A DNA stretch of 64,000 bases from an uncultured Burkholderiales bacterium (GTDB lineage Bacteria > Actinomycetota > Acidimicrobiia > IMCC26256 > JAGPDB01). The notes under the pieces are model-generated. The model was not told the origin of the DNA. It saw nothing but the letters and a program-made list of their open reading frames with translations, and ran no database searches. Shown in pieces: positions 35,997 to 58,524 of the stretch. The stretch covers positions 1,153-65,152 of the forward strand of contig CAZLQP010000005.1 in NCBI GenBank assembly GCA_964561855.1, written 5' to 3'. Position numbers and translations under genes: made by a program. The first letter of the stretch is position 1. Every line of letters begins with the position of its first letter.

Positions 35997-36383
35997 GTCC
36001 GTATCCTACCATTTCTATGTTAAATTGTAAACCTTGCGAATCGAACGAATATTTTGTAATATCATATTGTGAAATGCTATTACTAGGTACTACGTCCAAT
36101 TCTTAGAAGTTTTCGGCACGTAGATCGCCAACTTGAGCATTTCTCGAAAAAAATATCAAAAATCATGGATGACAAGCCCAAATCCCATGGAAAAGCCCAA
36201 AATTAGTCCGAGATTAGAAAATTAATCACTTTATATTAGTTATAAATAAGACGAATAAAGCCTAGCTGTAGCGTCTTTAACAAGATGTTTCGGCCGACAC
36301 AACAATCGTATTCGTAACGATCATCTCCAAGGAGGGCGATGCCACGTTAGATGCCTATTTGTAAAACAAATAAGGAGCCCCAG

Positions 36384-37124
36384 GTGACAGATCCAACATA
36401 CGCCATAGCAAACTCTCAAGCACCCGTACCAAAAAGAAATGTTGGTTCAAGAATTACTTTTGGTCACTTGATGATTGTGGTCAGTGGTTTACTTGCGTTT
36501 TTGTTAACCATTACAGTCATCAATCAATTTAGAGGAGATCAAACTGAAGTCTTGGTAGCGAGAGACAACATAGTTGCTGGTGAAAGTTTAGAGATATCAA
36601 AATTTGAAGTAAGACAAATTCCATCAAACGTATTGAACGATGAATTCGCAACTCGAGAAATGATTCAAAATGGCAATAACTTTGCCGCTCGTTCAATTCT
36701 TGAAGGTGAACCTTTGACTAGAGCTGCAATGACACCAGATGTTGAAGACGCTAATGTTTGGCTTCAATCGATTCCGATTTCAAGATCTTTAGCAGTCAAT
36801 GGAAGCATTTCACGAGGCGACCGAGTTGACATTATTGCAACCCCTGATGGCACTTGTGCATATCGTGCATTGAGAAACATTGAAGTTGTTTCAGCTCCTA
36901 CAACTTCATCAGGTGGAGTACTTTCGTCAAACACTAGAGAATTTACAATTACGGTATCTCTTGAGCAAGCCGGTGATGATCTTATCTTGGCTGGAGTAAT
37001 TGCAACTGGTCAATTCCAAATAGTTAAATCTACTGGTGATCGAGACCGAGGTGTTGTGATCGAAGATCCACAATGTGGTAATCCGCCAACTGCTTCTAAC
37101 TCTGCTGGATCTGGTGGTGCATAA
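36384..37124 (+). CDS. cpaB: Flp pilus assembly protein CpaB/RcpC (SAF domain)
   Basis: N-terminal TM, EVLVARDNIVAGE, AARSILEGEPL, GSISRGDRVDII; SD AAGGAG before GTG 36384 (alternative ATG 36351). Confidence 0.85.
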   Translation: MTDPTYAIANSQAPVPKRNVGSRITFGHLMIVVSGLLAFLLTITVINQFRGDQTEVLVARDNIVAGESLEISKFEVRQIPSNVLNDEFATREMIQNGNNFAARSILEGEPLTRAAMTPDVEDANVWLQSIPISRSLAVNGSISRGDRVDIIATPDGTCAYRALRNIEVVSAPTTSSGGVLSSNTREFTITVSLEQAGDDLILAGVIATGQFQIVKSTGDRDRGVVIEDPQCGNPPTASNSAGSGGA

Positions 37125-38975
37125 ATGACAATAACGATCGGTATCGTAGCTAGCTCTCGCGAGTGGAGAAGTATTTTACAAGCACATGTACGTGACCATG
37201 TTGCAGATGTAAAGGTACAAATACTTCGTGAACCTCGCATGGCTTTAGAGCTAGAGCTCGATGTTGTTGTAATTGATGATGTTTCAAGTTTCTTAACACG
37301 AGATAAAGTTGTTCGCCTTCGCGAAAAAGGTACACGTGTAGTTGGAATATACGATCCCGAAGGTCAAGAAGGCTTAGGAATTACGTTCTTAGAGAATCTT
37401 GGGGTTGATCTATCACTGCCTTCAAACATTTCACCTGAAGAGATGATCAGTGCAGTTTCTCAACTTCAACCTAGAGAAAACTACTCCAACGTTTTCGACC
37501 ATGCTGTTGCGGACTTCTCTTCAACTCAAACTCCTACTGTGGAGCCTGGTAATTCTGCAATTATTACGGTTGCGGGTCCAGCAGGTACTGGATCTACTGA
37601 AATTGCTATTGCATTAGCGGATCTTTTGGTTGCAAGACGCACTGCAACATTATTGATTGATTGCGATGAAGTAGGTCCTAGCGTTGCTCGAAGAATTGGT
37701 TTTCATTTACACCCGAATATTTTGACTGCTATGGATGCAGTAGCAAATGTTACAAAACCATTAACAGAAATGGTTGGAAGACCCAGCGACAGAGTTGCAA
37801 ATTCCGTTAACTTTGATGTGATTCCTGGAATTGCTAATCCAGAAGATTGGTCACAGTTACGTTCTAGCGACATTGCTGATTTATTTACCGCTGCAAGAAA
37901 GTCTTGGAGATATATTGTATGTAATACCGGTCCATTTACTGAAGACCTATCGGGTTATGGAATGGAAAGATTTGGTGGTACTCGAGCTGCACTTGAATAT
38001 GCAGATGTAATTATAGGAGTGATGTCACCAACGACAACAGGTTATATGAGATTCTTAGACTGGCTTTCTTCGCTGAGAAGTTTAGGCCATGATCGAGCTG
38101 TATATGTTGTGGTTAATCGAGCTCCAAAGTCTGGCTATATTCGAAAAGAAATCGAATCGCAACTTACTAGAGATGTTGATTCTCGCTACATTGCAGGATT
38201 GTTTTTTGTAGCTGAAGATGAAAAAGTAACAAAAGCAGAATGGGAAGGTCAGCTCGTATCTAGAGGACCTTTTCTCAACACAGTTGCTGAAGTCGCTACT
38301 TTTGCAATACCAGCTAGGTATGTGAAGAAAAATTCAAAAGGCGCCCAAGGGGTTGTGCAAACTTCTGCTGGAACAGCATTTTCAGGAGCACCTATTGCTG
38401 CTCCCAATCAGATGCCTTCACAAGCACAAGGTATATCTTGGGATGATCCTGATATTGCAGGAGCTCCTCAAGTTCCAATGCCTCCGCAAGCTCCAGCTCA
38501 AAGTGTGATGGAACCTCAACCATTAGCTTCAGAAGTTAGTCCATACATTACAGAGCAACCTCAGAATTTAAACATTGATTCGATAGATCAAATTGATGAA
38601 ATTGAGAATTCGATCGCGCATAGCATGCAACAGTCTGACTACGAAACTCAAGCGCAACAACCAACTCCTCAAGATAACTCGTATTCATTTTCTCCACCTA
38701 TTCATTCAGTCGAACATGTTACACCTAGCCCGGCACAGGTTCCGCAATCTCCAGCAGATCCAACAAGCCAGTCTTATGTACCAGCATATAAACGAGATTC
38801 CCAAGAACAAATTCCTGATGCAAATGAACAGTTTGTGAATGCTCAACCGCCAGAACCAACAAATCAAGGTTACGTCAACCAAGAAAATGTTGCTCAACAA
38901 GGGAAGGGTTACGTGCCTGGATATGTTGAAGAAGATAAGGAAGAAAATCCTGACGACAAGTTTTGGGGTAACTAA
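37125..38975 (+). CDS. tadZ: CpaE/TadZ-like pilus localisation protein with long Gln/Pro-rich tail
   Basis: Receiver-like N-terminus, MinD-like domain (TVAGPAGTGSTE, LLIDCD); between cpaB and tadA. Confidence 0.7.
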   Translation: MTITIGIVASSREWRSILQAHVRDHVADVKVQILREPRMALELELDVVVIDDVSSFLTRDKVVRLREKGTRVVGIYDPEGQEGLGITFLENLGVDLSLPSNISPEEMISAVSQLQPRENYSNVFDHAVADFSSTQTPTVEPGNSAIITVAGPAGTGSTEIAIALADLLVARRTATLLIDCDEVGPSVARRIGFHLHPNILTAMDAVANVTKPLTEMVGRPSDRVANSVNFDVIPGIANPEDWSQLRSSDIADLFTAARKSWRYIVCNTGPFTEDLSGYGMERFGGTRAALEYADVIIGVMSPTTTGYMRFLDWLSSLRSLGHDRAVYVVVNRAPKSGYIRKEIESQLTRDVDSRYIAGLFFVAEDEKVTKAEWEGQLVSRGPFLNTVAEVATFAIPARYVKKNSKGAQGVVQTSAGTAFSGAPIAAPNQMPSQAQGISWDDPDIAGAPQVPMPPQAPAQSVMEPQPLASEVSPYITEQPQNLNIDSIDQIDEIENSIAHSMQQSDYETQAQQPTPQDNSYSFSPPIHSVEHVTPSPAQVPQSPADPTSQSYVPAYKRDSQEQIPDANEQFVNAQPPEPTNQGYVNQENVAQQGKGYVPGYVEEDKEENPDDKFWGN

Positions 38976-40297
38976 TGGCAAAGGAACGCTCGGTAACAGC
39001 ATATGAACATATAAGGTTAAAACTTCTAGATCGAATTAAAGAAGGAAAAATAGATCCTGAAAGCGATCCTGAAGGTGTTAGGGGTTTAATTAAGTCTGAA
39101 GTTGCAGCGTATCAACGACAAAGTCAAAGCGGAATTGGCGGAAGAACTTTAGCAAATCCAACTGATGTTGCAGAACGACTTGAACGAGCAATTCTTGGTT
39201 TTGGTGTACTTGGTCCGTTGTTAGAAGACGATAGTGTCGAGGAAATTTTTGTTTCAGGTGGAGATGTTTCTTATGTAGATGCAAACGGTCGTTTGGCTTC
39301 GGTTGAAGATCCTACAACTGAAGATGAATTATTTCACTTGATAAATAGATTGTTACAAACCTCAGGCCGTGAAGTATCAAGACGTAGTCCAATTGTTCAG
39401 GCTCGAGTTCTAGATGGCGCTGCGCGTTTAGGTGTTGTTGTTCCCCCAATTGCAGATGAGTTAAGCGTCACACTGAGAAAATATACAATGCGTCATGAAG
39501 ATTTAAATGATCTTGTGCGTTTTGATTCTCTTTCTCCTGCAGCTGCCGCCTTGTTGCATGCTGCGATGTTAACTCGAACAGGAATTGTTGTTAGTGGTAT
39601 TCCTGCTGCTGGTAAAACTACTTTGGTAAATGCTTTATTAAGAGCGGTTCCACCTTCGCACCGAATTTTAGGTTGTGAAGAAACTCGCGAACTTTCTGCT
39701 CCTGTGATGCACGGTGCTTATTATCAAACTCGCGCATCAAGTAATGATTCATCATCAGATTCTGAAGTTTCGTTACGAGATTTGGTGAGAATTTGTTTAG
39801 GTATGCGACCTGATTTATTAGTCGTAGGTGAAGTTCGAGGTGAAGAAGCTTTTGAACTTACACGTGCAGGTAATGCAGGTTGTGGAGTTTTGTGTACTGT
39901 TCACTCGAATAATGCAAGTGATGCACTTCAAGCACTGACGTCTACTGCAATTATGGCGGGACAAAATGTTCCAGAAAAACAAGTTCGCTCGATTTTTTCA
40001 AATGTATTTGATCTAGTGATTCATTGTGACCGAGAAGATGTGCAGTTTAAAACTGAAGAATCAGGAAAGATCAAACGTCAGATCATGGAAATTGCAGCTG
40101 TCCCTTCTATTCAAGGAGGCGATAGCGATTATACGATTGAGCCAATCTTTGTTCGTGAAGGTTTCGGGCAACCTCTTAGATGGACCGGTGCTCCTTTGCC
40201 CGAGAACTTACGTAAGAGGTTAGACAACGTTCTATCACGTCATGGTACAAGCGTTCAAAGGATATTGGAAGGTTCGAACCAAAGGATGACAGCATGA
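38975..40297 (+). CDS. tadA: Tad pilus assembly ATPase CpaF/TadA
   Basis: LGPLLEDDSVEEIFVSG, GIPAAGKTT Walker A, GCEETREL, MRPDLLVVGEVRGEEA, CTVHSN. Confidence 0.95.
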   Translation: MAKERSVTAYEHIRLKLLDRIKEGKIDPESDPEGVRGLIKSEVAAYQRQSQSGIGGRTLANPTDVAERLERAILGFGVLGPLLEDDSVEEIFVSGGDVSYVDANGRLASVEDPTTEDELFHLINRLLQTSGREVSRRSPIVQARVLDGAARLGVVVPPIADELSVTLRKYTMRHEDLNDLVRFDSLSPAAAALLHAAMLTRTGIVVSGIPAAGKTTLVNALLRAVPPSHRILGCEETRELSAPVMHGAYYQTRASSNDSSSDSEVSLRDLVRICLGMRPDLLVVGEVRGEEAFELTRAGNAGCGVLCTVHSNNASDALQALTSTAIMAGQNVPEKQVRSIFSNVFDLVIHCDREDVQFKTEESGKIKRQIMEIAAVPSIQGGDSDYTIEPIFVREGFGQPLRWTGAPLPENLRKRLDNVLSRHGTSVQRILEGSNQRMTA

Positions 40298-41253
40298 ATG
40301 TTTTAGCTGCACTCTTTGTTGCAATCTTCGTTTTTCTTTTAGGTGCACAAATTACAGGTAATATGCCTGAAAGATTTAACCGAGTGCAAGAACGGAAAAA
40401 ACGCCATACTAAAAGAGAACAAAGACAAAGCTGGTTGAATCAAAGCGGTGCTGGAGTTACTCCTTTGCAGTTCTGGGGTATTTCAATCGGAACTGGACTA
40501 GCTAGTTTTCTACTCGTTTTTGCTTTAACGCAAGTGTTTATTATTTCGGCTGTTCCCTCTATCATGTTGGGACTTTTACCCAGAACGTATTTTGCTCGCA
40601 AGCGAATAAAAGGACGAGAAGAACGAGTGCAGGCTTGGCCAGATGCACTAAGAACTCTAATTGCAGGGATCTCTTCAAGTCAGTCATTGCATCAGTCCCT
40701 ACGTTCGCTTGGAACAGGCGGACCTGTACCATTAAGACCTGTCTTTCAAAAATATGCACGACTAACACAAGCGTTAGATCAGCGAAGTGCGTTAGAAGTT
40801 ATCAAAGAAGATTTAGCCGATCCAATGAGTGATCGCATTATCGAAATTTTGATTGCAGCAACTGAAGCAGGTCCTGGTGTTGTTTTAGATATCTTACGAG
40901 ACTTAGCTGATTCAACAACAAGAGATTTACAATTAAGAGAACATATTGAAACTATGCAGACTGAACAAAAGCTAAATGCTCGAATTGTTTTTGTTATGCC
41001 TTATCTGTTGCTGATAATGATGGTTATGGCATCTGAAGAGATTAAAGATTTTTACCGCACTCCGGCAGGAGTTTTCATTATAGTCTTAGGTACTTTGATT
41101 TTGTCGGCAGGTATGTTGTTTATTCAAAAACTTGGTGTAATCCCGATGGAGCAAAGAGTTTTTGCACAATCAGTAACTGATGATAAGGAAAGAAAGATCA
41201 TTGAACAGTCGAATCGTAAACAAGGCGATTCGCCTTTGGAGCAATTCTCATGA
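40294..41253 (+). CDS. tadB: Tad platform protein TadB (T2SSF family)
   Basis: TM, WPDALRTLIAGISSSQSLHQSL, second TM pair; overlaps tadA stop. Confidence 0.88.
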   Translation: MNVLAALFVAIFVFLLGAQITGNMPERFNRVQERKKRHTKREQRQSWLNQSGAGVTPLQFWGISIGTGLASFLLVFALTQVFIISAVPSIMLGLLPRTYFARKRIKGREERVQAWPDALRTLIAGISSSQSLHQSLRSLGTGGPVPLRPVFQKYARLTQALDQRSALEVIKEDLADPMSDRIIEILIAATEAGPGVVLDILRDLADSTTRDLQLREHIETMQTEQKLNARIVFVMPYLLLIMMVMASEEIKDFYRTPAGVFIIVLGTLILSAGMLFIQKLGVIPMEQRVFAQSVTDDKERKIIEQSNRKQGDSPLEQFS

Positions 41254-42188
41254 GTTCTATGATTTTCTTTATTGGCTTGTTGATGGCATTTTGTGTCGGT
41301 TCAATTGCTGCACTCTTTTTCAAACCTCCAAGAAAACTTTCTTCTAGAGTCGCGCCATATACTCAATTGAATCGTTCAAGGCTAGGAAAAGGTGCAGATC
41401 TAACTGCAATCGGTTCGCTAGATAGCGCTGCTCCTCAGACTGCATTTGGAAGGATTTTTGGGCCTATCGGACAGTCGTTGGCAGATTTCTTGGGCCAAAT
41501 TATTGATGCAGGAGATGATGCATTCTTAGCTTTGCGTCTTCGTCAGGCTGGATTTTTAGATACTTCTCCTTCACAGTATCGAATGCGTCAACTTTCGTAT
41601 ACGCTTGGAGGAGCAGGTGCATGTACAGCATTGGGCTTGTTTGCTGGTAGCACATCTTTAACACTGCTTGGCTTTTTTGGTGGTGGACTTTGGGGTGCGA
41701 CTGCATGGCGAGGAAAAGTAAACAAAGCTATTAAATCTCGTCGCGAGCGAATGCGAATCGAACTATATACAGTTTCGCAATTGATCGCGATGCAAATGCG
41801 GACAGGTCAAGGATCTGTTGCTGCAGTGCAAGAAGTTACTCGTCGAGGAAGAGGACCTGTTGTTAGAGAATTGGCTGAAGCACTCAACTGGATGAGCTCA
41901 GGTATGGAACAATCTGAAGCGTACGAAAGACTCGGAGTTGAAACTCCCGAACCTGCAGCTGCAAGGTTGTATCGCGCTTTGGCTGATGGTGTTCGAAGTG
42001 GTGGAGACTTAGCGTCAACGCTGTTGACAATTTCAGATGATCTTCGTAGTGAAAGACGAGAAGAATTAGAGCGCAATGCAACAAAAAGACGAGGTGCGAT
42101 GTTGATACCAACAATTGTTATTATGTCTCCAGTAGTTCTTCTTTTCTTGATAGCACCAATACCTAGACTTCTCGCAGGGGGTGGCTAA
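41250..42188 (+). CDS. tadC: Tad platform protein TadC (T2SSF family)
   Basis: LRLRQAG, ELYTVSQLIAMQMRTG, SDDLRSERREE...MLIPTIV. Confidence 0.88.
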   Translation: MSSMIFFIGLLMAFCVGSIAALFFKPPRKLSSRVAPYTQLNRSRLGKGADLTAIGSLDSAAPQTAFGRIFGPIGQSLADFLGQIIDAGDDAFLALRLRQAGFLDTSPSQYRMRQLSYTLGGAGACTALGLFAGSTSLTLLGFFGGGLWGATAWRGKVNKAIKSRRERMRIELYTVSQLIAMQMRTGQGSVAAVQEVTRRGRGPVVRELAEALNWMSSGMEQSEAYERLGVETPEPAAARLYRALADGVRSGGDLASTLLTISDDLRSERREELERNATKRRGAMLIPTIVIMSPVVLLFLIAPIPRLLAGGG

Positions 42189-42294
42189 AAGTGTTTTTTA
42201 AGCCCCGAAATATAACGCTTGTAAGATTTTCTGATGCCAATCAACGAATGATGAATAATTATGCGAATAATGCGAAAAGCTACAAAAATAATTC

Positions 42295-42323
42295 TTGTCA
42301 AGAGCTAGAATATGTCCGACAAT
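42295..42323 (+). promoter_or_regulatory. putative sigma70-type promoter of the flp pilin gene
   Basis: TTGTCA - 17 nt - GACAAT, 45 nt upstream of the flp ATG. Confidence 0.45.
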
Positions 42324-42367
42324 ATAGAAAACCAGCTAGTTGCCCAGGTTGGTTATAAGGAGCCCCA

Positions 42368-42598
42368 ATGTTAAAGCTATATGTTGATTGTTTAACTTAC
42401 ATCAATTCAGCTAAGAGTTCTTTTAAACGTAGAGCTGATGAAGAAGGCTTCGTTAGTGCTGAAACTATTGCGATTGCTGTTGCGGGTGTTGTGATTGTTG
42501 GTTTGTTGTTTGGGATTTTTAGGGATCAACTAACAGGATTTGCAGATGGAATAATGGAACGCATCGGCGGTTTTGAAGATACTGAACCAACTCCGTAG
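42368..42598 (+). CDS. flp: Flp major pilin
   Basis: Leader ending RRADEEG, then FVSAET plus hydrophobic helix; predicted mature pilin 49 aa; strong SD AAGGAG. Confidence 0.85.
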   Translation: MLKLYVDCLTYINSAKSSFKRRADEEGFVSAETIAIAVAGVVIVGLLFGIFRDQLTGFADGIMERIGGFEDTEPTP

Positions 42599-42631
42599 TG
42601 GTTTTAATTTGATTCTTAATTGAGGTGTGAC

Positions 42632-43159
42632 GTGAAATTTCGCTTAGCTAAAAGAGCGAAAGATACGAATCAGCTCGGCTTTGTATCCGCTCAGTTTTTA
42701 GGCCTAATTGCTATCACTTTGTTTTTCTTATCAGGTGTAGTTCAAATTTTATTCATTGAGTATTCTCGTCAAGCAGCTATTACTGCAGCAAATGAAGCAG
42801 CACGCGCAGGATCTCAGAGTATTGACTTTCGACGAGCATTTGAAGCTCTTGAATCTACCGATCAAAGTGTGCGTGATGAAGCAGCAATTCAAATTGCTAA
42901 TGCAGAACAAGTTTGTGTTGAGCGGCTTACTTCTGCTGCAGATGACTTATTAGGCGTAAGTGCAGAAATTGAAGAGGATGGTATTTCTTGTGAAGTTCTA
43001 TCCAATAACGAAGTCGATCCTGCAAACGCTACGAGATTCTATATGCAAGCAAATTACTCTGCGACTGCGAGTGCGTTCATTCCATGGGCAAAACCTTTTG
43101 CAGACAATCGCCTAAAGAATCTCAGTGCAGTATATGAACAGCGTCAGGCGGCAGAATGA
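42632..43159 (+). CDS. tadE: TadE-like pseudopilin
   Basis: QLG/FVSAQF plus hydrophobic helix, AAITAANEAARAGS, two Cys. Confidence 0.75.
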   Translation: MKFRLAKRAKDTNQLGFVSAQFLGLIAITLFFLSGVVQILFIEYSRQAAITAANEAARAGSQSIDFRRAFEALESTDQSVRDEAAIQIANAEQVCVERLTSAADDLLGVSAEIEEDGISCEVLSNNEVDPANATRFYMQANYSATASAFIPWAKPFADNRLKNLSAVYEQRQAAE

Positions 43160-43653
43160 TTATTCAATGGCCACGTCGCGACGAAATTTCTGCAGATGAA
43201 AGCGGTTTTATGTCTGCTGAATGGTTGGCAGCTTTTGGTGTTTTGGTTATTCCAGTTTTTATTTTGGTTGTATCTTTAATCCAAGTACCGCCGAGGGTTT
43301 CTGCGGGTAACAATGCCGCTTCGCAAGCAGCGCTAGCTTACGTTGGAGCACTTGATCAAAGTCAGGCAATCGATCAGGCCGAAGAAGCTGCAGAAGATGC
43401 AATTACTTCGAGAAACTTAGGGATATCTGCATCCGAAATAAGAGTTGAAGTCGTTGAATCAAATGGATATTGTCCGGGCAGAGAAGTAACAATAGAAGTA
43501 ACAATCCCAATACCGGTTTCGATCAATCCATTTGGTGATTCTGCTTTGTTTGAGTTCGGCTCGCTTAGCTCTCGTTCAACTGAACGAATAGATGATTATG
43601 CAGAACTTGCTAATGTTGGCGACATGGCTAGTGGGTTATGTGATACGCCATGA
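43156..43653 (+). CDS. tadE: TadE/TadF-like pseudopilin
   Basis: DESG/FMSAEW plus hydrophobic helix, AASQAALAY, CPGREVTIEV, ERIDDY. Confidence 0.8.
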   Translation: MIIQWPRRDEISADESGFMSAEWLAAFGVLVIPVFILVVSLIQVPPRVSAGNNAASQAALAYVGALDQSQAIDQAEEAAEDAITSRNLGISASEIRVEVVESNGYCPGREVTIEVTIPIPVSINPFGDSALFEFGSLSSRSTERIDDYAELANVGDMASGLCDTP

Positions 43654-44120: not shown

Positions 44121-44294
44121 CTAAAAATCGGCCTGAAAATAACTACAAAAAGTACTTGTATATTTGTAATTGATGCTTCACAATTAGAAATAGCAATATT
44201 GCGAATAACGCGTTACAAAAACGACGTTTTTGCGTGCCTTTATGCCATGTAATTGGCCTAGTGGCTGATATTACTTTGGAATGAGAGGAAATCA

Positions 44295-45272: not shown

Positions 45273-45383
45273 GATAAAAAAGCAATATTTAGAATGTCAT
45301 ATTGCGAATAAAAAGAATAGAAGTTCATCTTGCGTTATTTGGAGGTCTATGTTATATTTAAACTACTTTCACAAGGAGGAGCC

Positions 45384-45734
45384 ATGTTGTCGAACTTATA
45401 TCTAGGGGCCATTGGTCTTGCACAACAGGTAAATAATGGTACAGATCGAATATCGAACTCTCGAAATCAGTTTGACGATACTGCACCTGGTCAAGCTCAG
45501 CTAACTGAACTGATTGGGACTATTAGGTCATGGGCTATCATTGCCTGTGTTCTTGCAATCATTATTGCTGCGATTATTTGGGCATGGGGTTCACAAAGCC
45601 AGAATGCCGCACAAGCAACACAAGGTAAAAAAGGTATGATTATCGCAGTTGCGGCTGCCGCAATCATATTTGCCGCTGAACCACTCATTGACTGGGGTAT
45701 CAGACTCGGCTCTGGAGTTAGAGACGGCGGATAA
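45384..45734 (+). CDS. VirB2/TrbC-like T4SS pilin (DUF6112-like)
   Basis: SD AAGGAGG; PGQAQLTELIGTIRSWAIIACVLAIIIAAIIWAWGSQSQN...GKKGMIIAVAAAAII two-helix pattern of actinobacterial conjugative pilins. Confidence 0.78.
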   Translation: MLSNLYLGAIGLAQQVNNGTDRISNSRNQFDDTAPGQAQLTELIGTIRSWAIIACVLAIIIAAIIWAWGSQSQNAAQATQGKKGMIIAVAAAAIIFAAEPLIDWGIRLGSGVRDGG

Positions 45735-45773: not shown

Positions 45774-45806
45774 GCGCGCCCGTGAAATTTCACGAGCGCG
45801 TTTTTT
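45774..45806 (+). terminator. intrinsic terminator after the VirB2-like pilin
   Basis: GCGCGCCCGTGAAATTTCACGAGCGCG hairpin followed by TTTTTT. Confidence 0.8.
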
Positions 45807-49180: not shown

Positions 49181-49233
49181 TTCTCCTCCTTTGCCTGATT
49201 ATACATTAGTAATTAGAAAATCGAAAGAACATA

Positions 49234-49262
49234 TTGCGAATTTGGGAAATAAAACGTATAAT
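49234..49262 (+). promoter_or_regulatory. sigma70-type promoter for the virB8-like to virD4 operon
   Basis: TTGCGA (49234-49239) - 17 nt - TATAAT (49257-49262), 21 nt before the ATG. Confidence 0.65.
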
Positions 49263-49282
49263 GCGAAATAAGAGGTATTTCA

Positions 49283-50029: not shown

Positions 50030-52322
50030 ACTAAAAACTTCTGTAGCGCTTTTATTTGTACTGGTGTTAGTCTCGACGATTGTTTTATTTGCAACGCCAG
50101 AAAAAGCTGAGGCAACAACCTTGTCATCTGGCAGGTCATTAACATATTTTTCTGCATCTACTTTTGGTGCGATGCCAGCAGAGTATCCAGCGAGCTTGCA
50201 AGCCTTCGGTGGGGTAAGACCTGTAAGTTGGTGGGATTCTATTGCTTCACTTGGAAACAATATTGCATGTTTTAATGCGATTGGAGCAGCGTTGTCAGCA
50301 ACTACTGGAGTTTGTGACGATTCGGTTATGGGATCTGTGGTTGAAAAAATTGAAGAAGCTCTTGATTGCGTGAAAGAGCCTATGGATTGTATCACTAAGT
50401 ATATTTTCGACGTTTTAGGTGGGGCAGTTGGTTGGGCTGTAAATGGAGTAGTGACTCTTGTAACTGGGACCAATGCGGAGTGTATTCGTCCAGGAGATGA
50501 ATCTCCTACATTTAATGATGATGCAAGAGCAAGAGAAACTCTAGATCAGAGGTTGGCAGGTTTTGACTCTTCTGGAGCATGGACAGCTGCACAAGATTTT
50601 AGATGTTCTGAACGAATCTCGCTAGATTATTTCGGACCTGGTGCTGGAGAGACTCAAGATATTTTTGCAGCGATTAATGATGCTAGAGCTACAGAGTTAA
50701 GGCAGATCAGACAGCAAATGAGTGATCTTAGCCAACAGGGAATTACTTCAGGTGAAGAATACGAGGCGTTGGTCGCGAGACAAGCTTTGCTAAATGAAAC
50801 GGCCGGAGATGTTTCAGAAGCTGATGCAATTACTAGAGGGCAAGCTGTCAACAGCGTTTTTTGGACACCTAAATCAACAGTAAGCACAGAAACTTTCAAG
50901 AGAGAGTATGGAAAGTATGTTCTTATTTCGGTCATGATAATGGTTCCAATGATTATCGCAGCTGCATTGCAGTCGCTGATCACAGGAAAAGCTGCATTGA
51001 TGATGCGTGGAGTTTTCATTCATATGCCAGTTGCTATATTTGGAATGATTATTGCGCCTTATCTTGTACGCACGCTAATGGCCATAACAGATACGTTTTC
51101 GTCATTCATCATTGCTGATGTGTCAAACGATGTGCAAGGTTTCTTTACTAATTCGTCTGAATTAATGACAGGGCTGTTTATTTCAATGGGGGTTTATGTG
51201 CTCCTACCCGCTTTCTTGATCGTGCTGGTGTTTTTGTTCGCGTCCTTGATGGTGTGGTTTATTCTCAACGTCCGTGAAGCTTCCATTTCTTTGGTCGCAG
51301 TGTTTTTGCCAATCGCATTAGCTGCGAGCATCTGGCCAGCTCTTGGAAGTTGGGCGATTAAAGCAATCAAGCTATTGGTGGCTTCAATAATTTCGAAGAT
51401 ATTTATTGTCGGTGCAATAAGTTTGGGTATTGGAATTTTTACTGGAGGTGCAGATACTGAAGGGATAGCATTTTCGCTTTCTCACTTAGTTTATGGTTCA
51501 GTTATCTTCTTGATCGCCGCATTTCAGCCAATGTTGGTCTTGAGATTCATGGATGAAATTGGTGACTCGATGACCAACGAAGGTAAGTCTGGTGGTTTTG
51601 CTAAGGGTGTTGCAATTGGTAATGGGCTTCAAGCATTAACTGGTAAGACCCCGTTGGGTGGATTATTAGGTAAAGGTGGTAGTGCTGCTTCAAGTTTAGC
51701 TAGCCCTTCTGGTGCAAGCCCTACCTCAGGTACGGGATCCGCACCTGGTGGTTCATCTGGTGGCCCGGCAAAGTTGTCTCCAGCGGCAAAAGCTGCAGTA
51801 AATGCAGCTACCTCTCCAAAAGGAACAGGCGGAGGAACTTCCCCAGGTGGAGGAAACTCAAGCCCTAAAGGCGGAAATACAAGTCCTGGAGGTACGAATG
51901 GAGGAAGTACCCCACTACCTGCTGGCGCTAATGGTGGGCATGATATTTCAGGACAACGAAATAGCGGATTATTGGTGCCATCAAGCATGAGTGAAAACAG
52001 CGGAGGTGGAGGTGATTCTGGAGGCTATCCCGATGGTTCTAGTTCAAATTTCAACACCGGAGAATACCAGGCGCCTGGACAAGCAAGTGCTCCGGATCTA
52101 GGCCAGATAAGTGCAAATCTCGCAAACTTCTCAGGTGGAGGGGGTGGAGGAGCTCCGACTTCTACGACAGGTGGAGGCAATGTGGGTGCTACTGCACCTA
52201 GAAAAGGATTGATAAATCGCGGGCTAACAAGAGCTGCGAAAGACGGAGGCAAAGCAGGCGTATTAGGAGCGATGGCAAGATTAACTATGGGCGATCCGCG
52301 CAATCAGCAACAGGGCGCATAA
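50013..52322 (+). CDS. VirB6/TrbL-like T4SS channel protein with Cys-rich N-terminal domain and Gly/Ser-rich tail
   Basis: Signal-like N-terminus; central multi-TM region with VAVFLPIALAASIWP...W...LLVASIISK typical of TrbL/VirB6; SD GGAGGG before ATG 50013. Confidence 0.78.
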   Translation: MYLVSRLKTSVALLFVLVLVSTIVLFATPEKAEATTLSSGRSLTYFSASTFGAMPAEYPASLQAFGGVRPVSWWDSIASLGNNIACFNAIGAALSATTGVCDDSVMGSVVEKIEEALDCVKEPMDCITKYIFDVLGGAVGWAVNGVVTLVTGTNAECIRPGDESPTFNDDARARETLDQRLAGFDSSGAWTAAQDFRCSERISLDYFGPGAGETQDIFAAINDARATELRQIRQQMSDLSQQGITSGEEYEALVARQALLNETAGDVSEADAITRGQAVNSVFWTPKSTVSTETFKREYGKYVLISVMIMVPMIIAAALQSLITGKAALMMRGVFIHMPVAIFGMIIAPYLVRTLMAITDTFSSFIIADVSNDVQGFFTNSSELMTGLFISMGVYVLLPAFLIVLVFLFASLMVWFILNVREASISLVAVFLPIALAASIWPALGSWAIKAIKLLVASIISKIFIVGAISLGIGIFTGGADTEGIAFSLSHLVYGSVIFLIAAFQPMLVLRFMDEIGDSMTNEGKSGGFAKGVAIGNGLQALTGKTPLGGLLGKGGSAASSLASPSGASPTSGTGSAPGGSSGGPAKLSPAAKAAVNAATSPKGTGGGTSPGGGNSSPKGGNTSPGGTNGGSTPLPAGANGGHDISGQRNSGLLVPSSMSENSGGGGDSGGYPDGSSSNFNTGEYQAPGQASAPDLGQISANLANFSGGGGGGAPTSTTGGGNVGATAPRKGLINRGLTRAAKDGGKAGVLGAMARLTMGDPRNQQQGA

Positions 52323-52381
52323 AACGAAATTCTTAAATGACCAAAAGCGGCTGACACAGAAACATGAACAAAGGGTGATAT

Positions 52382-53830
52382 ATGGCACAAGGTTATAAAC
52401 TTGGTGGCGCTGAGCCAAAGAAACTATTCATGGGATTCAGAACATCTCAAGTAGTTATTTTAGCTATTGGCGTGATGTTAGGTTTTATTGCTGTTGCTGC
52501 AAATCAACTTCTTTTAGTTTTAGTTATATTCGGTTTTGCAGTCGCAATTGCTTTTTTGCCTTTTGGCGGGAGAAATTTAGATGAGTGGATCCCAATTTTT
52601 GCGCGTTGGACAATAACAGGATCCAAAGGAAGACAACATCATAGCGTTGCTCCGCTTTTAGGTCACACAGATAAAAAAAGTCAGATGATTGGGCCTCCAC
52701 CTTTTCTTAAAGGCGTGAAACTTTTAAAGGTTGTCAACTCTGATAATCGCGAGATTGCTGTGATTAAAGATGCACAAGCAGGAACATATTCTGGCGTGCT
52801 ACAAATAAGTGGTGGTTCTTTTGTGCTTTCGTCTTCTGCTGACCAAGAAGTTCAACTAGCAAATTGGGGATCAGTTTTAGCAAGATTTTCTAGAGAAGGT
52901 TCACTAATAAATAGAGTGCAATGGATAGAGCGAGCAATACCTGAAAACTCTCAAGCAATGCACGAGTATTTTGATGGTGCAGCAGCACTTGGCGAAGATA
53001 ATCTTGCAACTCAATCTTATCTAGAGCTTATTGATTCAGCAGCACCGATTACAACATCACACGAAGTCTTTTTGGTTATACAAATTTCTCAACTTAAATG
53101 TGCAAAACAAATAAAGCAAGCCGGCGGTGGAGATGATGGCGCATGTGAGGTTCTAATCAGAGAGCTAACGCATGCTGCAAATCAAGTAGCGAGTGCTGGC
53201 TTTAATGTATTGAAAGTTTTAAATCGAGATGATGCGGTAAGACTCATTCGCACATCTTTTGAACCAGATGTAAACGAGGAACTAGTAAAGAAACAGGCAC
53301 AAGGTTATTCAATGAATGAAATCTGGCCTGTAACTACAGAAACCGAATGGGATCTATTTCACTCTGATGGATCTTTTCATAGAACATTTTGGATTTCTGA
53401 TTTTCCTCGAACAGAAGTGGGTGCAGACTTTCTATCAAACTTGATGCTGCAGAGTCAGATCACCCGGACGGTCAGCGTTGTGATGGAACCGCTCTCACCC
53501 ACTAAAGCCTTGCACGAAGTAGAAGTAGCGCGCACCTCTTTCTTAGCGGATCAAGATATCCGAGACAAAGCAGGTTATGTTACAAACGCTACTCGTCAAC
53601 GAGAGTTTGAAAAACTCCAACAACGAGAACAAGAACTCGCAGATGGACACGGTGCATATCGATTCTCTGCTTACTTAACATGTTCAGCGCCAGATGAAGA
53701 ATCTCTAGAGTATGCCTCACAAGCATTAGAACAAGCAGCACACCAATCGCACCTAGTATTGCGAACATTATATGGTGAACAAGACAATGCATTTGCTACA
53801 CGCTTGCCTTTCGGAAGAGGTCTGGTATGA
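52382..53830 (+). CDS. SCO6880-family protein (PrgI/VirB3-like N-terminus)
   Basis: LFMGFRTSQV plus two TM, LPFGGRNLDEW, WGSVLA, VQWIER, HRTFWISDFPR, QQREQELADGH, GEQDNAFATRLPFGRG. Confidence 0.85.
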   Translation: MAQGYKLGGAEPKKLFMGFRTSQVVILAIGVMLGFIAVAANQLLLVLVIFGFAVAIAFLPFGGRNLDEWIPIFARWTITGSKGRQHHSVAPLLGHTDKKSQMIGPPPFLKGVKLLKVVNSDNREIAVIKDAQAGTYSGVLQISGGSFVLSSSADQEVQLANWGSVLARFSREGSLINRVQWIERAIPENSQAMHEYFDGAAALGEDNLATQSYLELIDSAAPITTSHEVFLVIQISQLKCAKQIKQAGGGDDGACEVLIRELTHAANQVASAGFNVLKVLNRDDAVRLIRTSFEPDVNEELVKKQAQGYSMNEIWPVTTETEWDLFHSDGSFHRTFWISDFPRTEVGADFLSNLMLQSQITRTVSVVMEPLSPTKALHEVEVARTSFLADQDIRDKAGYVTNATRQREFEKLQQREQELADGHGAYRFSAYLTCSAPDEESLEYASQALEQAAHQSHLVLRTLYGEQDNAFATRLPFGRGLV

Positions 53831-55113
53831 GCGCTGTTCCTGATGTAAAGCTCAAGTGGATTGATCCAACTGCTGTATTTGTTCCACCACATCGTGCAAC
53901 CACAGCACACCTTCAAGCTGTGTTTCCTTTAATGTACTCTCCAGGCTTAGGTTCGCGAGGAACATACATTGGCCGCGAGCTAATGGGCGGATCGTTTTGT
54001 TATGACCCTTGGGAACTTTATGCGCAAGGTTTATTGACCAACCCAAACATGTTAATTATCGGACAAGTTGGTCGTGGTAAGTCTTCACTTGTAAAGAGTT
54101 TATTGGTTCGACAACAAGTTTTTGGTCGACGTGCAGCAGTATTGGATCCAAAAGGTGAATATGAAGGACTAGCAAAGGTTTTAGGAGCTCCTGTTGTAAA
54201 AATTGCACCTGGAGGAAATGTTCGAATCAATCCTCTAGATCCGGGACTTAGCATTGGTTTGGTTGAACATGATGAAATCTTTCGACGACAAACCACTTTG
54301 CTTCAAGCCTTAGCTGCATCTTCTTTGAATCGAGAATTATCACCAGAAGAACGAACTGCCTGTGATTTAGCGTTAGCGGACTTTCACGAATTCAATCACG
54401 GCAAAGTTCCAACAATTCCAGACATAGTCGAGTGGTTATTACATCCTCGAGAAGAAGCGGCATTAACTGTAGGTGCTACTGCAGATCAAATCGCTCATGG
54501 AGTGAGAGAGGTTGCTCTTGAACTTCGTCGAATGTGTCACGGTGATTTAAAAGGTATGTTCGATGGTCATACAAATATCACAGTTGATTGGGATGGACCA
54601 TTGGTTGTAATTGACCTATCTGCAGTGTTCTCTTCTTCTGCATTAGGGTTGTTGATGACATGTGCAACTGCTTGGATGCAAAGTGCAATCGTTAGACCTA
54701 ATGCTGGTCGACGATTCATAGTTGTAGATGAGGCTTGGGCTGTTTTAAGTAACGTCGGTGTAGCTCGATGGTTACAGCAGTCTTACAAACTTTCTCGTGC
54801 ATATGGTATCTCTAACGTTGCAGTTATGCACCGTGTTAGCGACCTTCAAGCTTCAGGTGCAGTAGGTTCCGAAGCTTATGCGCTTGCAAGAGGTTTGTTA
54901 TCTGATACAGAAACTAGAGTGATATATGGACAACCGCACTCTGAAGTTGAAATGGCACAAGAACTTTTAGGTTTGTCAGAGTCAGAAGCAGGATTACTTC
55001 CTCAACTAGGTAGAGGACAAGCGCTATGGAAGGTCGGCTTGAGATCATTTTTGATCGAACATATATTAGGAGAGACCGAACTAGCAATAGTTGACACAGA
55101 CGCAAGAATGTAA
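53827..55113 (+). CDS. virB4: VirB4-like T4SS ATPase
   Basis: HRATTAHL, GQVGRGKSS Walker A, VLDPKGEY, RRFIVVDEAW Walker B, KLSRAYG; overlaps the SCO6880 stop. Confidence 0.9.
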   Translation: MSAVPDVKLKWIDPTAVFVPPHRATTAHLQAVFPLMYSPGLGSRGTYIGRELMGGSFCYDPWELYAQGLLTNPNMLIIGQVGRGKSSLVKSLLVRQQVFGRRAAVLDPKGEYEGLAKVLGAPVVKIAPGGNVRINPLDPGLSIGLVEHDEIFRRQTTLLQALAASSLNRELSPEERTACDLALADFHEFNHGKVPTIPDIVEWLLHPREEAALTVGATADQIAHGVREVALELRRMCHGDLKGMFDGHTNITVDWDGPLVVIDLSAVFSSSALGLLMTCATAWMQSAIVRPNAGRRFIVVDEAWAVLSNVGVARWLQQSYKLSRAYGISNVAVMHRVSDLQASGAVGSEAYALARGLLSDTETRVIYGQPHSEVEMAQELLGLSESEAGLLPQLGRGQALWKVGLRSFLIEHILGETELAIVDTDARM

Positions 55114-55148
55114 ACAGCCCTGGGGGTCTGATCCCCCAAAAGGAAACG

Positions 55149-57854
55149 ATGAATCAAACGCCAGCAGGGACAACAAGGAACTTGGGACTCACCCCCATGG
55201 AGTCCATAATTTTTGCTGTCGTAGTTATCTTTTTAGGGCTTGGAGTTTTACTTTTCGTTGCCGGTGAACTCTCTGGTGTGATCTTTAATCAAGATCGACC
55301 TGCTGCATCTGCTGCAAACATTCCATCAATTGCTGCAGGCGTTGTTAGTAACCTCGGCGATCCTGCACAAGCGTGGCCTGAAGAATCTCGAGATGCTGTT
55401 CCGGGTCCTATTCCTTATTATTTCACTTTGCTTTTCATTATTGTAGGTTTAGTAATTGGCGCTAAATATGCTCATGGTTTTTGGACGGGTACATTTGGAA
55501 ACAAAGATCTCAACAATGCACAATGGGCAAAAGCTCGGGACTTAAAACCTTTAATTGTGCAACAAGCTGGAATTCGTGGACGACTTGTTCTTGGTCGAAG
55601 TAGCGGAAAGCTAATTGCGACTGAACCTCGAATGAGTGTCATCGTTTTGGGTCCTACACAGACTGGTAAAACAACTGGTTTTGCTGTTCCTGCAATTTTG
55701 GAATGGGACGGACCAGTAATTGCTGCTTCGGTGAAGAACGACCTTGTTAAAGACACGTTCAAATGGCGCAAAACACAAGGTGATGTTTGGCTATTTGACC
55801 CAACACGTTCTACAGGTTTTGATTACGAAGAAGTGCGTGCAGGTTGGTCGCCATTGTCTCAAGCAATTGAATGGGGCGGAGCGAGAAAAGTTGCTTCTTG
55901 GTTGTGTAAAGCCAATAAAGCTGCAGGTAATAATTTAAGTGATGGTGACTTTTGGTTTTCAGCTGCTGAAAAATTAATGTCTCCTTATCTTTTTGCTGCT
56001 GCTGTTGGCGGAAAAGATATGTCAACAATTCTTCGTTGGATTGACACGCAAGAAGAACGTGAAGTTTTGTCTATCTTGCAACGCGCAGGTGTTGGTGAAG
56101 CAATGACTGCTTTTGAAGCAAATATGAAACGTGATGAACGAACAAAGTCATCTATCTTTACAACTGCCGAAACAATTATCGATGCTTATAACGATCCACT
56201 TGTTTGTGAGTCAGCAGCAAACCCCACAATTTTCTCAAGTGAATTATTAAACGGTGGAAAAAATACACTTTACATTTGTGCGCCTTCGCATGAGCAGGAA
56301 CGTTTGCAATCTATCTTTACAGCAATTGTTTCTCAGATGAAATCTGCAGCGTATGAGCTAGCCGGTAAACAAAACCGACCGATCGATCCACCGCTTCTAA
56401 TATGTATTGACGAGGCTGCAAATATTGCACCTCTTTCGGATCTAGATGCAATCGCATCTACGGCTGCTGGTATTGGTATTCAGCTAGTAACAATTTTCCA
56501 GGATATGGCACAGATCGAATCTCGCTATAAAGATCGTGCGAGAACAGTGGTAAACAACCACCGTGCAAAAGTGGTGCTGTCAGGTATTTCGGACTCAGGA
56601 ACTTTAGAATATGTTTCAAAGATTTGTGGTGAAGAAGAAGTAGAACAAACATCCACAAACATTTCTGCACAAGGTGAACGTTCTACTACTGAATCGAAGC
56701 AACAACGCACACTTGCAAGTGGCTCTTACTTACGTCGTATGAAATTTGGTGAAGGAATTGTTGTTTACGGTCAACTTGCTCCTGCGAAATTAGTTTTACG
56801 TCCTTGGTATAAGGATCGCGTATTAAAACACATGGTGGAACACGGATCAAAGCCCGGAGTTATGGGCGGTTCTTCTGGAGCCAACACATTTGCAGGTGCC
56901 GATAAAATCGTCAAAGATCCAAAGTCTCAAGAAGTTCTCTCTAGCGTTCCTCGTGATTCAACTCAGTTCTCAAATCAATCAGCTAATGAAATGAGTCCTA
57001 CGGGAAGTCCCTATGCGTCGAAACAATTAGGCTCTGTTGCAACCGATCCTTCGTTTGCTCAACAAAGCTCGCCTCAAGCTGATGGTCAACTTTCCGCATT
57101 TGATAAAGCGCTAGCTGAATTGCGAGCAAGAGATACCACAACTCCGCCGCAGCCAGAGCAACCTAGCGGTGATATATCATCTCAGCCGCCACAGTTTCCG
57201 GCAACGGCGCCAACGCCATCTCCAAGTTTTGGCGATATGCCACAGACTGGTGTTGCGCCTGCACCGAGCAGTTTTTCCGCAACTCCAACATCAGAACCAA
57301 AATATACTCCTGGTGTACCTTTAATTTCTGAAGAGCCACAAGTGTCATCTGCTAGTCCATCTAAATGGAAACCGACATCTGGGGGAGTACCTGAAGAGCC
57401 AAGCGTTCCTTCTGGTTTCGCTGCTGTTGCTAAACCTGTTACGCCATCTCCAACACCTGCAGTCGAAACTCCTTTAGCTCCAACTATACCGACAGACACA
57501 ACATCGGCAACATCTGCATCAAGTGCGACTTCGTCAAAGTGGTCAAAAGGTTCGCATCCAAAATTTAAATCAAGTGATACGACGGCTCCTCAAGTCCCGA
57601 CTCCGCCACAAGCTGCACCACCACAATCTTCGCCAACACAAGCTACTCCGCCAACAGCTCCTGTACCGCCAACTACACCTGCGCCTTCGGTACAAACTCC
57701 ACCAGTAGATGTATCAGATTTGTTTGCTCAGTATTCGTCCACAGGGGTAGTTCCATCAGCTAATGAGGATGAAGAAGAGGACAAGCCGACAAATGAGTCC
57801 GTGCTTTCTCAACCAGAATCCCAACCTCCTGCGCCAAAATCAAAATGGAAATAG
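55149..57854 (+). CDS. virD4: VirD4/TraG-like type IV coupling protein with long Pro/Ser/Thr-rich tail
   Basis: Two N-terminal TMs, VLGPTQTGKT Walker A, WLFDP, CIDEAANIAPL Walker B, IFQDMAQI, NNHRAKV. Confidence 0.92.
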   Translation: MNQTPAGTTRNLGLTPMESIIFAVVVIFLGLGVLLFVAGELSGVIFNQDRPAASAANIPSIAAGVVSNLGDPAQAWPEESRDAVPGPIPYYFTLLFIIVGLVIGAKYAHGFWTGTFGNKDLNNAQWAKARDLKPLIVQQAGIRGRLVLGRSSGKLIATEPRMSVIVLGPTQTGKTTGFAVPAILEWDGPVIAASVKNDLVKDTFKWRKTQGDVWLFDPTRSTGFDYEEVRAGWSPLSQAIEWGGARKVASWLCKANKAAGNNLSDGDFWFSAAEKLMSPYLFAAAVGGKDMSTILRWIDTQEEREVLSILQRAGVGEAMTAFEANMKRDERTKSSIFTTAETIIDAYNDPLVCESAANPTIFSSELLNGGKNTLYICAPSHEQERLQSIFTAIVSQMKSAAYELAGKQNRPIDPPLLICIDEAANIAPLSDLDAIASTAAGIGIQLVTIFQDMAQIESRYKDRARTVVNNHRAKVVLSGISDSGTLEYVSKICGEEEVEQTSTNISAQGERSTTESKQQRTLASGSYLRRMKFGEGIVVYGQLAPAKLVLRPWYKDRVLKHMVEHGSKPGVMGGSSGANTFAGADKIVKDPKSQEVLSSVPRDSTQFSNQSANEMSPTGSPYASKQLGSVATDPSFAQQSSPQADGQLSAFDKALAELRARDTTTPPQPEQPSGDISSQPPQFPATAPTPSPSFGDMPQTGVAPAPSSFSATPTSEPKYTPGVPLISEEPQVSSASPSKWKPTSGGVPEEPSVPSGFAAVAKPVTPSPTPAVETPLAPTIPTDTTSATSASSATSSKWSKGSHPKFKSSDTTAPQVPTPPQAAPPQSSPTQATPPTAPVPPTTPAPSVQTPPVDVSDLFAQYSSTGVVPSANEDEEEDKPTNESVLSQPESQPPAPKSKWK

Positions 57855-57927
57855 GGATTTTAAATCTAGAATCCAATAAACTGGAAACCTTTTTGTAGAG
57901 CAAGTAGGATCTAGAAAAGGCAAATTA

Positions 57928-58356
57928 ATGCAAAGTAGAACTATGAGTGAAGAAATTTCAGAAGAACTCGAAGAGATAGCAAATAAGCTGACTTCCAGGC
58001 GCGGAGCTCCTGAACAAGAGCAGAATAATTCAGGCTCTACTGGAGATGTCGTAAATCGCCTTGAAAAAATTGGTATTCACACTCATAAGGCAAAAGTCGC
58101 AGAAGTGGCTGACCTGTTATTTGGTGGAGACGTCCGTACTCGACCTGGTGCGCACCGAAGAATTGATGATCAACAGTTTGAAATTCTGGCTAGGGCATTT
58201 TTGCTTTACGTTAATTTTAGCTATGAATTCGAAGAAATCGCTGATTTTATTAATGGAAAATCGAGCTACGATGACGTTTTGTTCCGATTGAAAGCTGGAC
58301 TTGTTCTTATCGATGAAATTGCTGAACAAGCTGGTATTTCGCCTCAAAATAGCTAA
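57928..58356 (+). CDS. hypothetical protein directly downstream of virD4
   Basis: 142-aa ORF (possible start ATG 57943); acidic and helical; no family recognised. Confidence 0.65.
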   Translation: MQSRTMSEEISEELEEIANKLTSRRGAPEQEQNNSGSTGDVVNRLEKIGIHTHKAKVAEVADLLFGGDVRTRPGAHRRIDDQQFEILARAFLLYVNFSYEFEEIADFINGKSSYDDVLFRLKAGLVLIDEIAEQAGISPQNS

Positions 58357-58524
58357 AAATTGGCTAGATTCTATTTTTAGAGCAGATCTCTCAAAATATT
58401 GTATAAAATTGTGAATAAATACTGAATTTCGCCTTGTAATATGCCGAAAAACCAGGCAAAATAACAGTACAAATAATATTGAATTGGAAAATTCTATTTT
58501 GAAATTGAAAAGATCAGGTGTCAA

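Follow-up and report, generated by a model that had tools for sequence, protein, structure and literature searches.

The closest described counterparts of the system considered here are small winged-helix proteins that bind DNA in tandem. BldC binds 9-bp direct repeats head to tail, with one protomer per repeat, and these repeats number two at whiI and four at smeA-sffA, in positions ranging from upstream of the -35 element to across the core promoter (PMC5859096). The minimal whiI site is TGTGTCCGAATTGCTCGGATTG and the unit consensus is AATTXXXX(C); the DNA-contact residues are Lys26, Arg30, and His46, with Arg30 reading the ninth-position base pair and Lys26 lying near the guanines that follow the AT tract, and the changes R30A and H46E abolish binding (PMC5859096). 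RdfS, an HTH_17 protein of the excisionase family from Mesorhizobium ICEMlSym R7A (8DGL), forms head-to-tail oligomers, represses its own promoter, and controls conjugative-transfer genes (PMC11963761). Here we describe a 64,000-nucleotide stretch from an uncultured Acidimicrobiia bacterium (contig CAZLQP010000005.1, hereafter the window), in which a Tad plus type IV secretion system (T4SS)-like block at 35.7-59.6 kb carries a short promoter motif in 9-nt steps and opens with a gene for a small HTH_17 protein, our candidate regulator.

After the HTH_17 gene comes a Tad set with CpaB-like, ParA/CpaE-like, CpaF, TadB, TadC, and Flp genes and three genes of the TadE-like type. The genes that follow encode a 325-aa protein (here the "linker"), a pilin of DUF6112/VirB2-like type, a number of membrane proteins of unknown kind, and, on the - strand, an NlpC/P60 hydrolase. 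At the far end of the block lie genes for a DUF8175 protein, a 775-aa protein, an EccE-like protein, a VirB4-like ATPase, the coupling protein VirD4, and a LysM protein. An initial annotation of this DNA had proposed that one motif recurs in six intergenic regions of the block. All six sequences are found where it placed them (36064, 42258, 44196, 45299, 49231, and 58406), and the proposal holds for the regions of flp, the pilin, and nlpC/DUF8175, but the TGTGAA variants at 36064 and 58406 have low scores and are kept no better than the DNA around them, and the copy at 44196 is not conserved in place. With this revision, the motif is very likely a real, conserved cis-regulatory element that links the Tad and T4SS-like promoters.

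The exact 13-mer is present at 44196 and 45299, and two matches were reached in 0 of 100 shuffles. With 2 mismatches allowed the signal is weak, about twofold, with 12 occurrences in the whole window versus 6.4 expected and 12 reached in 2 of 100 shuffles. The significant core is (T)TGCGAA(T). TGCGAA occurs 33 times in the window (both strands), 8 times in its 4.0 kb of intergenic DNA, and 7 of these 8 copies, all of + strand orientation, fall within the 1.39 kb of spacers that belong to the block; the sole intergenic copy in the 40 kb outside the block (28664) is on the opposite strand. When words were counted without bias, TGCGAA ranked first among 6-mers in the block's intergenic DNA (+ strand; 7 versus 0.34 expected, P = 8e-8) and TGCGAAT first among 7-mers (5 versus 0.14 expected). 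A matrix built from relatives only found 19 matches of at least 11 bits in the window, of which 7 fall within the 1391 nt of block spacers and none within the other spacers (2587 nt), while a matrix built from the window sites only found 13 intergenic matches in 6521 nt of block spacers of the relatives and 0 in 2693 nt of their other spacers. The motif had gone unseen in housekeeping spacers in the initial annotation, and this observation is borne out; within the available sequence it is not equally frequent in unrelated intergenic DNA, since both matrices match block spacers and not the others. That an AT-rich word should recur by chance in spacers that are themselves AT-rich would suit the modest excess of the degenerate 13-mer and the 2 of 6 originally listed sites that found no support, but with such a P value for the core, with sites kept at orthologous positions, and with the motif present in genomes of 65-69% GC, we give this explanation almost no credence.

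We find that the unit is a 9-nt element of consensus wTGCGAATa with a hard core CGAA, arranged as 2-4 units head to tail in a 9-nt register. Distances between CGAA cores on the + strand, pooled over six genomes, peak at 9 (10 pairs), 19 (7), and 27 (6), and the reverse strand of the same genomes has no such pattern. This general register had been missed initially, as had the unit that follows the -10 element at 49262. The candidate regulator gene and the sites, doubtful ones included, are as follows.

35751..35996, - strand: HTH_17 gene (81 aa), first gene of the block and candidate regulator.
36034..36050, + strand: operator dimer, TTGCGAATC then GAACGAAT; full site TTGCGAATCGAACGAAT, second 9-nt frame read as GAACGAATA.
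36064..36074, + strand: ATATTGTGAAA, doubtful; out of the 9-nt register and not a CGAAT unit.
36250..36258, + strand: single unit GACGAATAA 5' of cpaB, seen in the alignment as the conserved block GACGAAtAA.
36307..36316, - strand: inverted unit before cpaB, CGTATTCGTA on the + strand and TACGAATACG on the - strand.
42243..42279, + strand: array of 3-4 units 5' of the flp promoter, with AACGAATGA and, further on, ATGCGAATA then ATGCGAAAA, the last two framed from 42261.
44196..44208, + strand: exact 13-mer copy near the linker gene, at a window-specific position.
45299..45319, + strand: operator dimer, TTGCGAATA then AAAAGAATA, 5' of the pilin promoter; 9-nt frames from 45302.
49231..49270, + strand: four units of the DUF8175 operon, TTGCGAATT, TGGGAAATA, AAACGTATA, and ATGCGAAAT, in 9-nt register from 49234.
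58406..58418, + strand: AAATTGTGAATAA before LysM, doubtful (9.8 bits, at 58408).

The window was compared by spacer alignment with six relatives that have syntenic contigs (44-49% GC), whose identity to the window is 42-51% for the linker, 84-86% for the VirB4-like ATPase, and 91-94% for the HTH protein. The spacers align as islands of identity amid poorly alignable DNA. Invariant columns make up 14 of 17 at the HTH site (32% in the remaining spacer), 13 of 18 at the pilin site (46%), and 28 of 36 at the DUF8175 site (36%), so that the motif columns of these three sites are 72-82% invariant versus 32-46% elsewhere in their own spacers. The pilin operator has the consensus TATTGCGAATAnnnnGAATG in 7 genomes. 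Upstream of flp, GCGAAT/GCGAAA arrays of 2-5 units are found in every aligned genome, their number and arrangement varying. In 6 to 10 syntenic Acidimicrobiia genomes, arrays are conserved at four places, namely the HTH gene start and the flp, pilin, and DUF8175...VirD4 promoters, and the footprinting in relatives that the initial annotation had called for comes out in favor of the motif there. The inverted cpaB-side unit lies directly downstream of a conserved GGCCGACA element (36292-36299), and its TCGTATTCG is invariant across all aligned genomes.

Other sites fare less well. At 44196 only 1 of 13 columns is invariant versus 20% in the remaining spacer, and the relatives carry CGAAT-type units elsewhere in the linker spacer: at the -35 element in L008, as an inverted pair in L003/L005, and as the direct dimer GCGAATTCTGCGAAA in L080. 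Because these units sit at other positions, the alignment suggests site turnover rather than absence. At LysM 5 of 13 columns are invariant versus 35% in the remaining spacer (3 genomes), and the conserved feature there is a promoter-like TTGTAA-N17-CAmAAT at 58434-58462. The 36064 site is partly conserved as a different word, TTrTkAAwTGC; the divergent region between the HTH gene and cpaB does carry the motif, as had been claimed, but at the overlooked 36034-36050 site, which is the best conserved of all. The alignments offer no support for LysM membership or for the 36064 and 58406 sites, which would best be dropped. Of the single regulon first envisaged, the sharing of the motif by Tad and T4SS-like promoters stands and the inclusion of LysM (9.8 bits, fewer than half of its motif columns invariant) falls. 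Because the sites at promoters of both parts are phylogenetic footprints in relatives, co-regulation of the Tad and T4SS-like genes is, as a reading of sequence conservation, well supported.

CGAAT-type units also occur 20-40 nt upstream of the HTH start codon in every lineage examined, from 40 to 69% GC, and in most lineages they keep the 9-nt register. The sequences upstream of the HTH gene are as follows.

Close relatives (44-49% GC): TTGCGAATCGAACGAAT.
L082 (54% GC): TTGCGAATATTGGGAAG.
L081 (61% GC): inverted pair ATTCGCAATTTGCGAAT, not direct.
L080 (65% GC): AACGAATTTGTCGAAT.
L087/L088 (69% GC): CGAATGCTACGAACCAGACGAAC / ATTCGCGAATGCTACGAACCAGACGAAC, three units 9 nt apart.

Estimated from base composition, CGAAT-N4-CGAAT would arise by chance in the 364-nt spacer of L080 with a probability of about 2e-4. 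Beyond the clade that bears the HTH protein the pattern is different. VirB4-like homologs (50-57% identity) are widespread in metagenome-assembled genomes (MAGs) of Acidimicrobiales, Gaiellales, and Thermoleophilia (L013-L079). In the 68 more distant VirB4-like loci (L012-L079, mostly 61-76% GC, from these three groups and a few Streptomycetales) GCGAAT is not enriched and 84 kb of spacers hold 1 intergenic CGAAW-N3-4-SGAAW dimer; the only HTH_17 protein near these high-GC T4SS-like loci is a weak paralog in L075, within 10 kb. The motif therefore travels with T4SS-like genes only inside the HTH-bearing clade.

The relation of the units to promoters was judged from promoters predicted by conservation and a consensus scan, which are listed here.

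36003..36031, - strand: HTH gene promoter, TTTACA-17-TGgTAGGAT, a stretch invariant in all relatives.
42295..42323, + strand: flp promoter, TTGTCA-17-GACAAT (scan 9/12), with conserved CTTGyCA and CACAAT blocks.
44156 (TTGTAT), N17, and 44179 (CACAAT), + strand: linker-gene promoter; the 13-mer copy at 44196 sits 12 nt downstream.
45330..45358, + strand: pilin (VirB2-like, DUF6112) promoter, TTGCGT-N17-TATATT with a TG extension; CTTGCG and TGnTAnnnT are conserved.
49198-49205, - strand: extended -10 element TGTATAAT of the divergent nlpC/P60 promoter, about 30 nt from the DUF8175 array.
49234 (TTGCGA), 17 nt, and 49257 (TATAAT), + strand: promoter of the DUF8175...VirB4/VirD4 operon (scan 10/12), the best sigma-70-type match in the region.

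The HTH operator dimer begins 3 nt beyond the -35 element of the HTH promoter and overlaps a weaker + strand candidate promoter, TTGCGA-N17-TAATAT, that faces cpaB. The flp array lies about 20-50 nt upstream of the predicted -35 element and the pilin operator ends 10 nt before its own, while the four DUF8175 units cover the -35 element, the spacer, the -10 element, and the start region to about +8.

Could the motif be promoter sequence only, with TTGCGA as a -35 element, GCGAA after TATAAT as start-site or discriminator context, and no dedicated regulator? The initial annotation had itself cautioned that TTGCGA at 49234 doubles as a -35 element, and this is correct: TTGCGA-17-TATAAT at 49234-49262 is the strongest promoter match of the region, a weak TTGCGA-17-TAATAT is possible at 36034, and the pilin's own -35 element reads TTGCGT/TTGCGG. 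However, no -10 element follows at 16-18 nt for the units of flp (42262, 42271), the pilin (45302), or the linker gene (44199), which have separate conserved promoters downstream or upstream, so that the motif does not always sit at -35 in these predicted promoters. Conservation moreover runs past the hexamer into second, third, and fourth units phased by 9 nt, and outside the block, over 40 kb, the spacers that bear promoters lack TGCGAA save for the opposite-strand copy already mentioned. The -35 identity accounts for 49234 and possibly for the weak promoter at 36034; it cannot account for the flp and pilin sites, and we regard promoter sequence alone as an improbable explanation of the motif as a whole.

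An RNA-level motif (a leader, processing, or protein-binding site) would fit the strict + strand bias, which follows the coding strand of the downstream gene, and read-through from the upstream genes could place the flp and pilin sites in a transcript. Yet a protein that binds head to tail also yields strand bias, the units in both divergent spacers overlap or precede the -35 element and so are not expected in RNA, and the pairs in L081 and L003/L005 are inverted in the DNA. No Rfam family matches the motif, tRNA being the only Rfam match on the window. An RNA element is thus very improbable.

Several observations concern the starts and leaders of these same genes. The HTH mRNA is probably leaderless, to judge from the sequence, because the predicted extended -10 element (35994-36008 region) ends 6 nt before the ATG and is invariant in the relatives; N-terminally extended annotations of homologs (MVWYK...) include the translated HTH promoter region. 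The longest pilin open reading frame (45330-45734) begins at a TTG, 45330, inside the -35 element, whereas conservation points to the ATG at 45384, which follows AAGGAGG (TTTCACAAGGAGG) and is preceded by a conserved TTTCACAAGGAGGA. Directly 3' of the pilin gene, at 45775-45806, lies a GC-rich hairpin with a T run (CGCGCCCGTGAAATTTCACGAGCGCGTTTTTT) that has an equivalent in all relatives and is probably a terminator or attenuator separating the pilin from the downstream genes. The linker leader (44209-44232) has a conserved ACGyyAC-AAAAA-nGACGT, an inverted repeat in L001 that is imperfect in the window.

A second conserved element, CGGCYGACA(C) or sGACAAT/CACAAT, is found 25-45 nt upstream of five start codons, those of cpaB (36292-36299), the EccE-like gene (52349-56), flp (42316-42323), the linker gene (44179-44184), and LysM (58455-58462). 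Its form before the EccE-like gene, GGCTGACA, is invariant in 6 of 7 aligned genomes (GGCCGACA in L010), and the element recurs in the relatives of 54-65% GC (L080-L082). Possible readings are an unusual -10-type element and the site of another factor; in Streptomyces, the WhiA motif is GACAC. The HTH-cpaB spacer additionally holds conserved blocks at 36100-36150 (TTTTCGGCAC and CCAACTTGAGCATTTCT) with no obvious promoter, operator, or Rfam match.

If the motif is an operator, the HTH_17 protein is the candidate at hand, since domain scans found no other DNA-binding domain among the block proteins. It matches Pfam HTH_17 over residues 16-64 (E = 2e-8) and, weakly, the BldC sequence in the Protein Data Bank (PDB; 6AMK, E = 1.4e-4, about 26% identical). 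The AlphaFold2 (AF2) model, with a predicted local distance difference test (pLDDT) score of 74, has a helix-turn-helix, a wing, and short C-terminal helices, and the top 7 Foldseek matches in the PDB are chains of BldC-DNA complexes (TM 0.77-0.85, rmsd 1.5-2.4 Å), with P2 Cox-type, RdfS, RacA, and Xis proteins ranking after them. As in the BldC family, the protein is only a small MerR/Xis-like winged helix without an effector or coiled-coil domain; the further family trait of 9-bp head-to-tail repeats in variable number is matched on the DNA side only. Residues 6-66, the DNA-binding part, are nearly invariant in 18 homologs. Orthologs occur in only 8 species representatives of the Genome Taxonomy Database (GTDB), all Acidimicrobiia-type MAGs, and the gene keeps its place in all lineages examined, divergent from cpaB wherever the contig covers that side. 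One further neighbor was considered, a conserved 189-aa protein (35075-35644), which has no Pfam or PDB match and an insignificant SdpR-like match (E = 0.03), and it was rejected as the regulator.

The initial annotation had named this BldC-like neighbor as the regulator and invoked head-to-tail direct repeats. The protein is indeed a good candidate by its fold and by the units upstream of its own gene, and the 9-nt register agrees with the published 9-bp mode of BldC (PMC5859096); membership of the BldC family, however, is not borne out. We consider it reasonably probable that the HTH_17 protein binds the motif in the manner of BldC, a reading that draws on its linkage to the sites, the operator at its own gene, the register, and the fold.

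A number of points count against this reading. The protein scores 24.9 bits against the NCBIfam HTH_BldC model (NF033787), far from the cut-off of 77, and in the HMMER alignment to 6AMK the BldC residues Lys26, Arg30, and His46 correspond to Arg30, Leu34, and Val49 here (the chain numbering offset of 4 being deduced from residue names in PMC5859096). Since Arg30 and His46 are not kept, the binding chemistry of BldC is not transferable, and the CGAAT core common to the motif and the BldC site may be a coincidence. The pair upstream of the L081 HTH gene is inverted, some arrays have 8-nt or out-of-phase spacings, and at two sites a unit coincides with a -35 hexamer. The scans covered 64 kb of the source genome and pieces of about 20 kb of the relatives, and the regulon may be larger than the scanned sequence. 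No RNA-seq or metatranscriptome run with the window sequence was found.

Some of these points would equally suit a genuine operator that belongs to a factor encoded elsewhere, such as a response regulator or another direct-repeat binder. The enrichment and conservation evidence concerns the DNA and not the binder, the HTH_17 protein falls below the BldC family cut-off and lacks the two contact residues, and only genome fragments were scanned. Set against this are the units that every lineage carries immediately 5' of the HTH gene, which are the usual signature of autoregulation, and a register that fits BldC and not the 10-11 nt of OmpR/PhoB-type regulators (PMC5859096). The absence of the motif from distant high-GC T4SS-like loci, where L075 alone has a weak HTH_17 paralog nearby, tells in the same direction. 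We therefore think a factor encoded elsewhere unlikely, though it is the alternative that we take most seriously.

Taking the HTH_17 protein as the binder, we infer by analogy with BldC that one protomer would occupy each 9-bp unit and that the protein would polymerize head to tail. The sign of regulation at each promoter, like this stoichiometry, is read from the position of the units. Arrays upstream of the -35 elements of flp and the pilin would be placed for activation or DNA bending, whereas the array across the core promoter of the DUF8175...VirB4/VirD4 operon, near the divergent nlpC/P60 promoter, would be placed for repression, and the dimer against the -35 element of the HTH gene's own promoter would fit repression and autoregulation. 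With arrays at both sets of promoters, the Tad and T4SS-like genes would thus be wired to one switch.

The genes of the block look like a fixed chromosomal system and not a mobile element, because no relaxase or integrase was detected and because the block of L080 lies a few genes from dnaA-dnaN-recF-gyrB-gyrA. Domain scans of the 30 proteins from 33948 to 63902 found no integrase or relaxase domain, and no att site was seen there. The flanks are housekeeping genes (tRNA-Ile at 33715, NucS, malic enzyme, and SURF1), and the gene order is the same in lineages of 40-69% GC. A reading of the HTH gene as the excisionase of an integrative and conjugative element was considered and set aside: tRNA-Ile is followed by an oxidoreductase gene rather than an integrase gene, and the block lies in chromosomal synteny. 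Homologous loci were found through a protein database and exact-protein look-ups, and the relatives of the locus are Acidimicrobiia MAGs. In 5.8 billion clusters only ten relatives of the linker protein were found, six of which gave the syntenic contigs compared above, and a GTDB genome search with the linker alone gave no match. The window DNA is 99% covered by one subsurface-metagenome run. Two public MAGs, L009/L084 (CAZFAO010000010.1) and L011/L086 (CAYMMG010000011.1), are titled "uncultured Burkholderiales bacterium," yet their loci are of actinobacterial type (HTH_17, DUF6112, EccE-like, and NucS neighbors), and they are probably mislabeled.

More speculatively, and with clear doubt about the idea as a whole, the Tad and T4SS-like genes could form one chromosomally fixed, co-regulated machine, for example for pilus-assisted DNA transfer or uptake, run by a new sequence-specific, BldC/Xis-like, filament-forming subfamily perhaps domesticated from the excisionase of an ancient conjugative element. 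What the analysis provides for this uncharacterized Tad-plus-T4SS-like block is a concrete regulatory code, wTGCGAATa every 9 nt, together with a named candidate regulator. If the assignment is right, a BldC-like protein would for the first time have a defined regulon in an organism other than Streptomyces and Actinoplanes, and its unusually sharp consensus would help to show how winged-helix proteins of this minimal kind read DNA. No stronger argument is available that the pilus and the secretion or transfer genes act together than their co-regulation, which frames the question of what the block, in which no relaxase was detected, actually transports.

Among known systems, the excisionases of phages and integrative and conjugative elements (lambda Xis, Pukovnik Xis 4J2N, and the TIGR01764 domain) share the fold and bind tandem direct repeats cooperatively, and the window protein scores 27.6 bits against TIGR01764, just below its cut-off of 28.8. 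No recombinase partner or attachment site accompanies it, however, and its putative repeats lie at several promoters and not at one recombination site. RdfS ranks high among the fold matches and is functionally the nearest analogy; it differs in being part of a mobile element that has both an integrase and att sites, neither seen in this chromosomally syntenic block, and in having no defined consensus motif. No paper was found that connects a BldC-like protein with Tad or T4SS genes, and what is new is the target set for a known kind of regulator. BldC (Streptomyces venezuelae/coelicolor; 6AMK, 6AMA) is, like the window protein, a small single-domain MerR/Xis-like winged helix, and its whiI site has the ATTCG (CGAAT) core of the window motif. 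The reverse complement of the unit, TATTCGCAA, matches whiI (AATTCGGAC) in the AT tract and CG, but its ninth base is A/T and not C, which is consistent with the BldC Arg30 position being Leu34 here, and its consensus is much sharper than AATTXXXX(C). Given the residue mismatches and the failed NCBIfam HTH_BldC threshold, the HTH_17 protein would work like BldC but is not a BldC. Unlike BldC it is confined to a small Acidimicrobiia clade, and where BldC targets developmental regulators, the proposed targets in the window are pilus and secretion genes.

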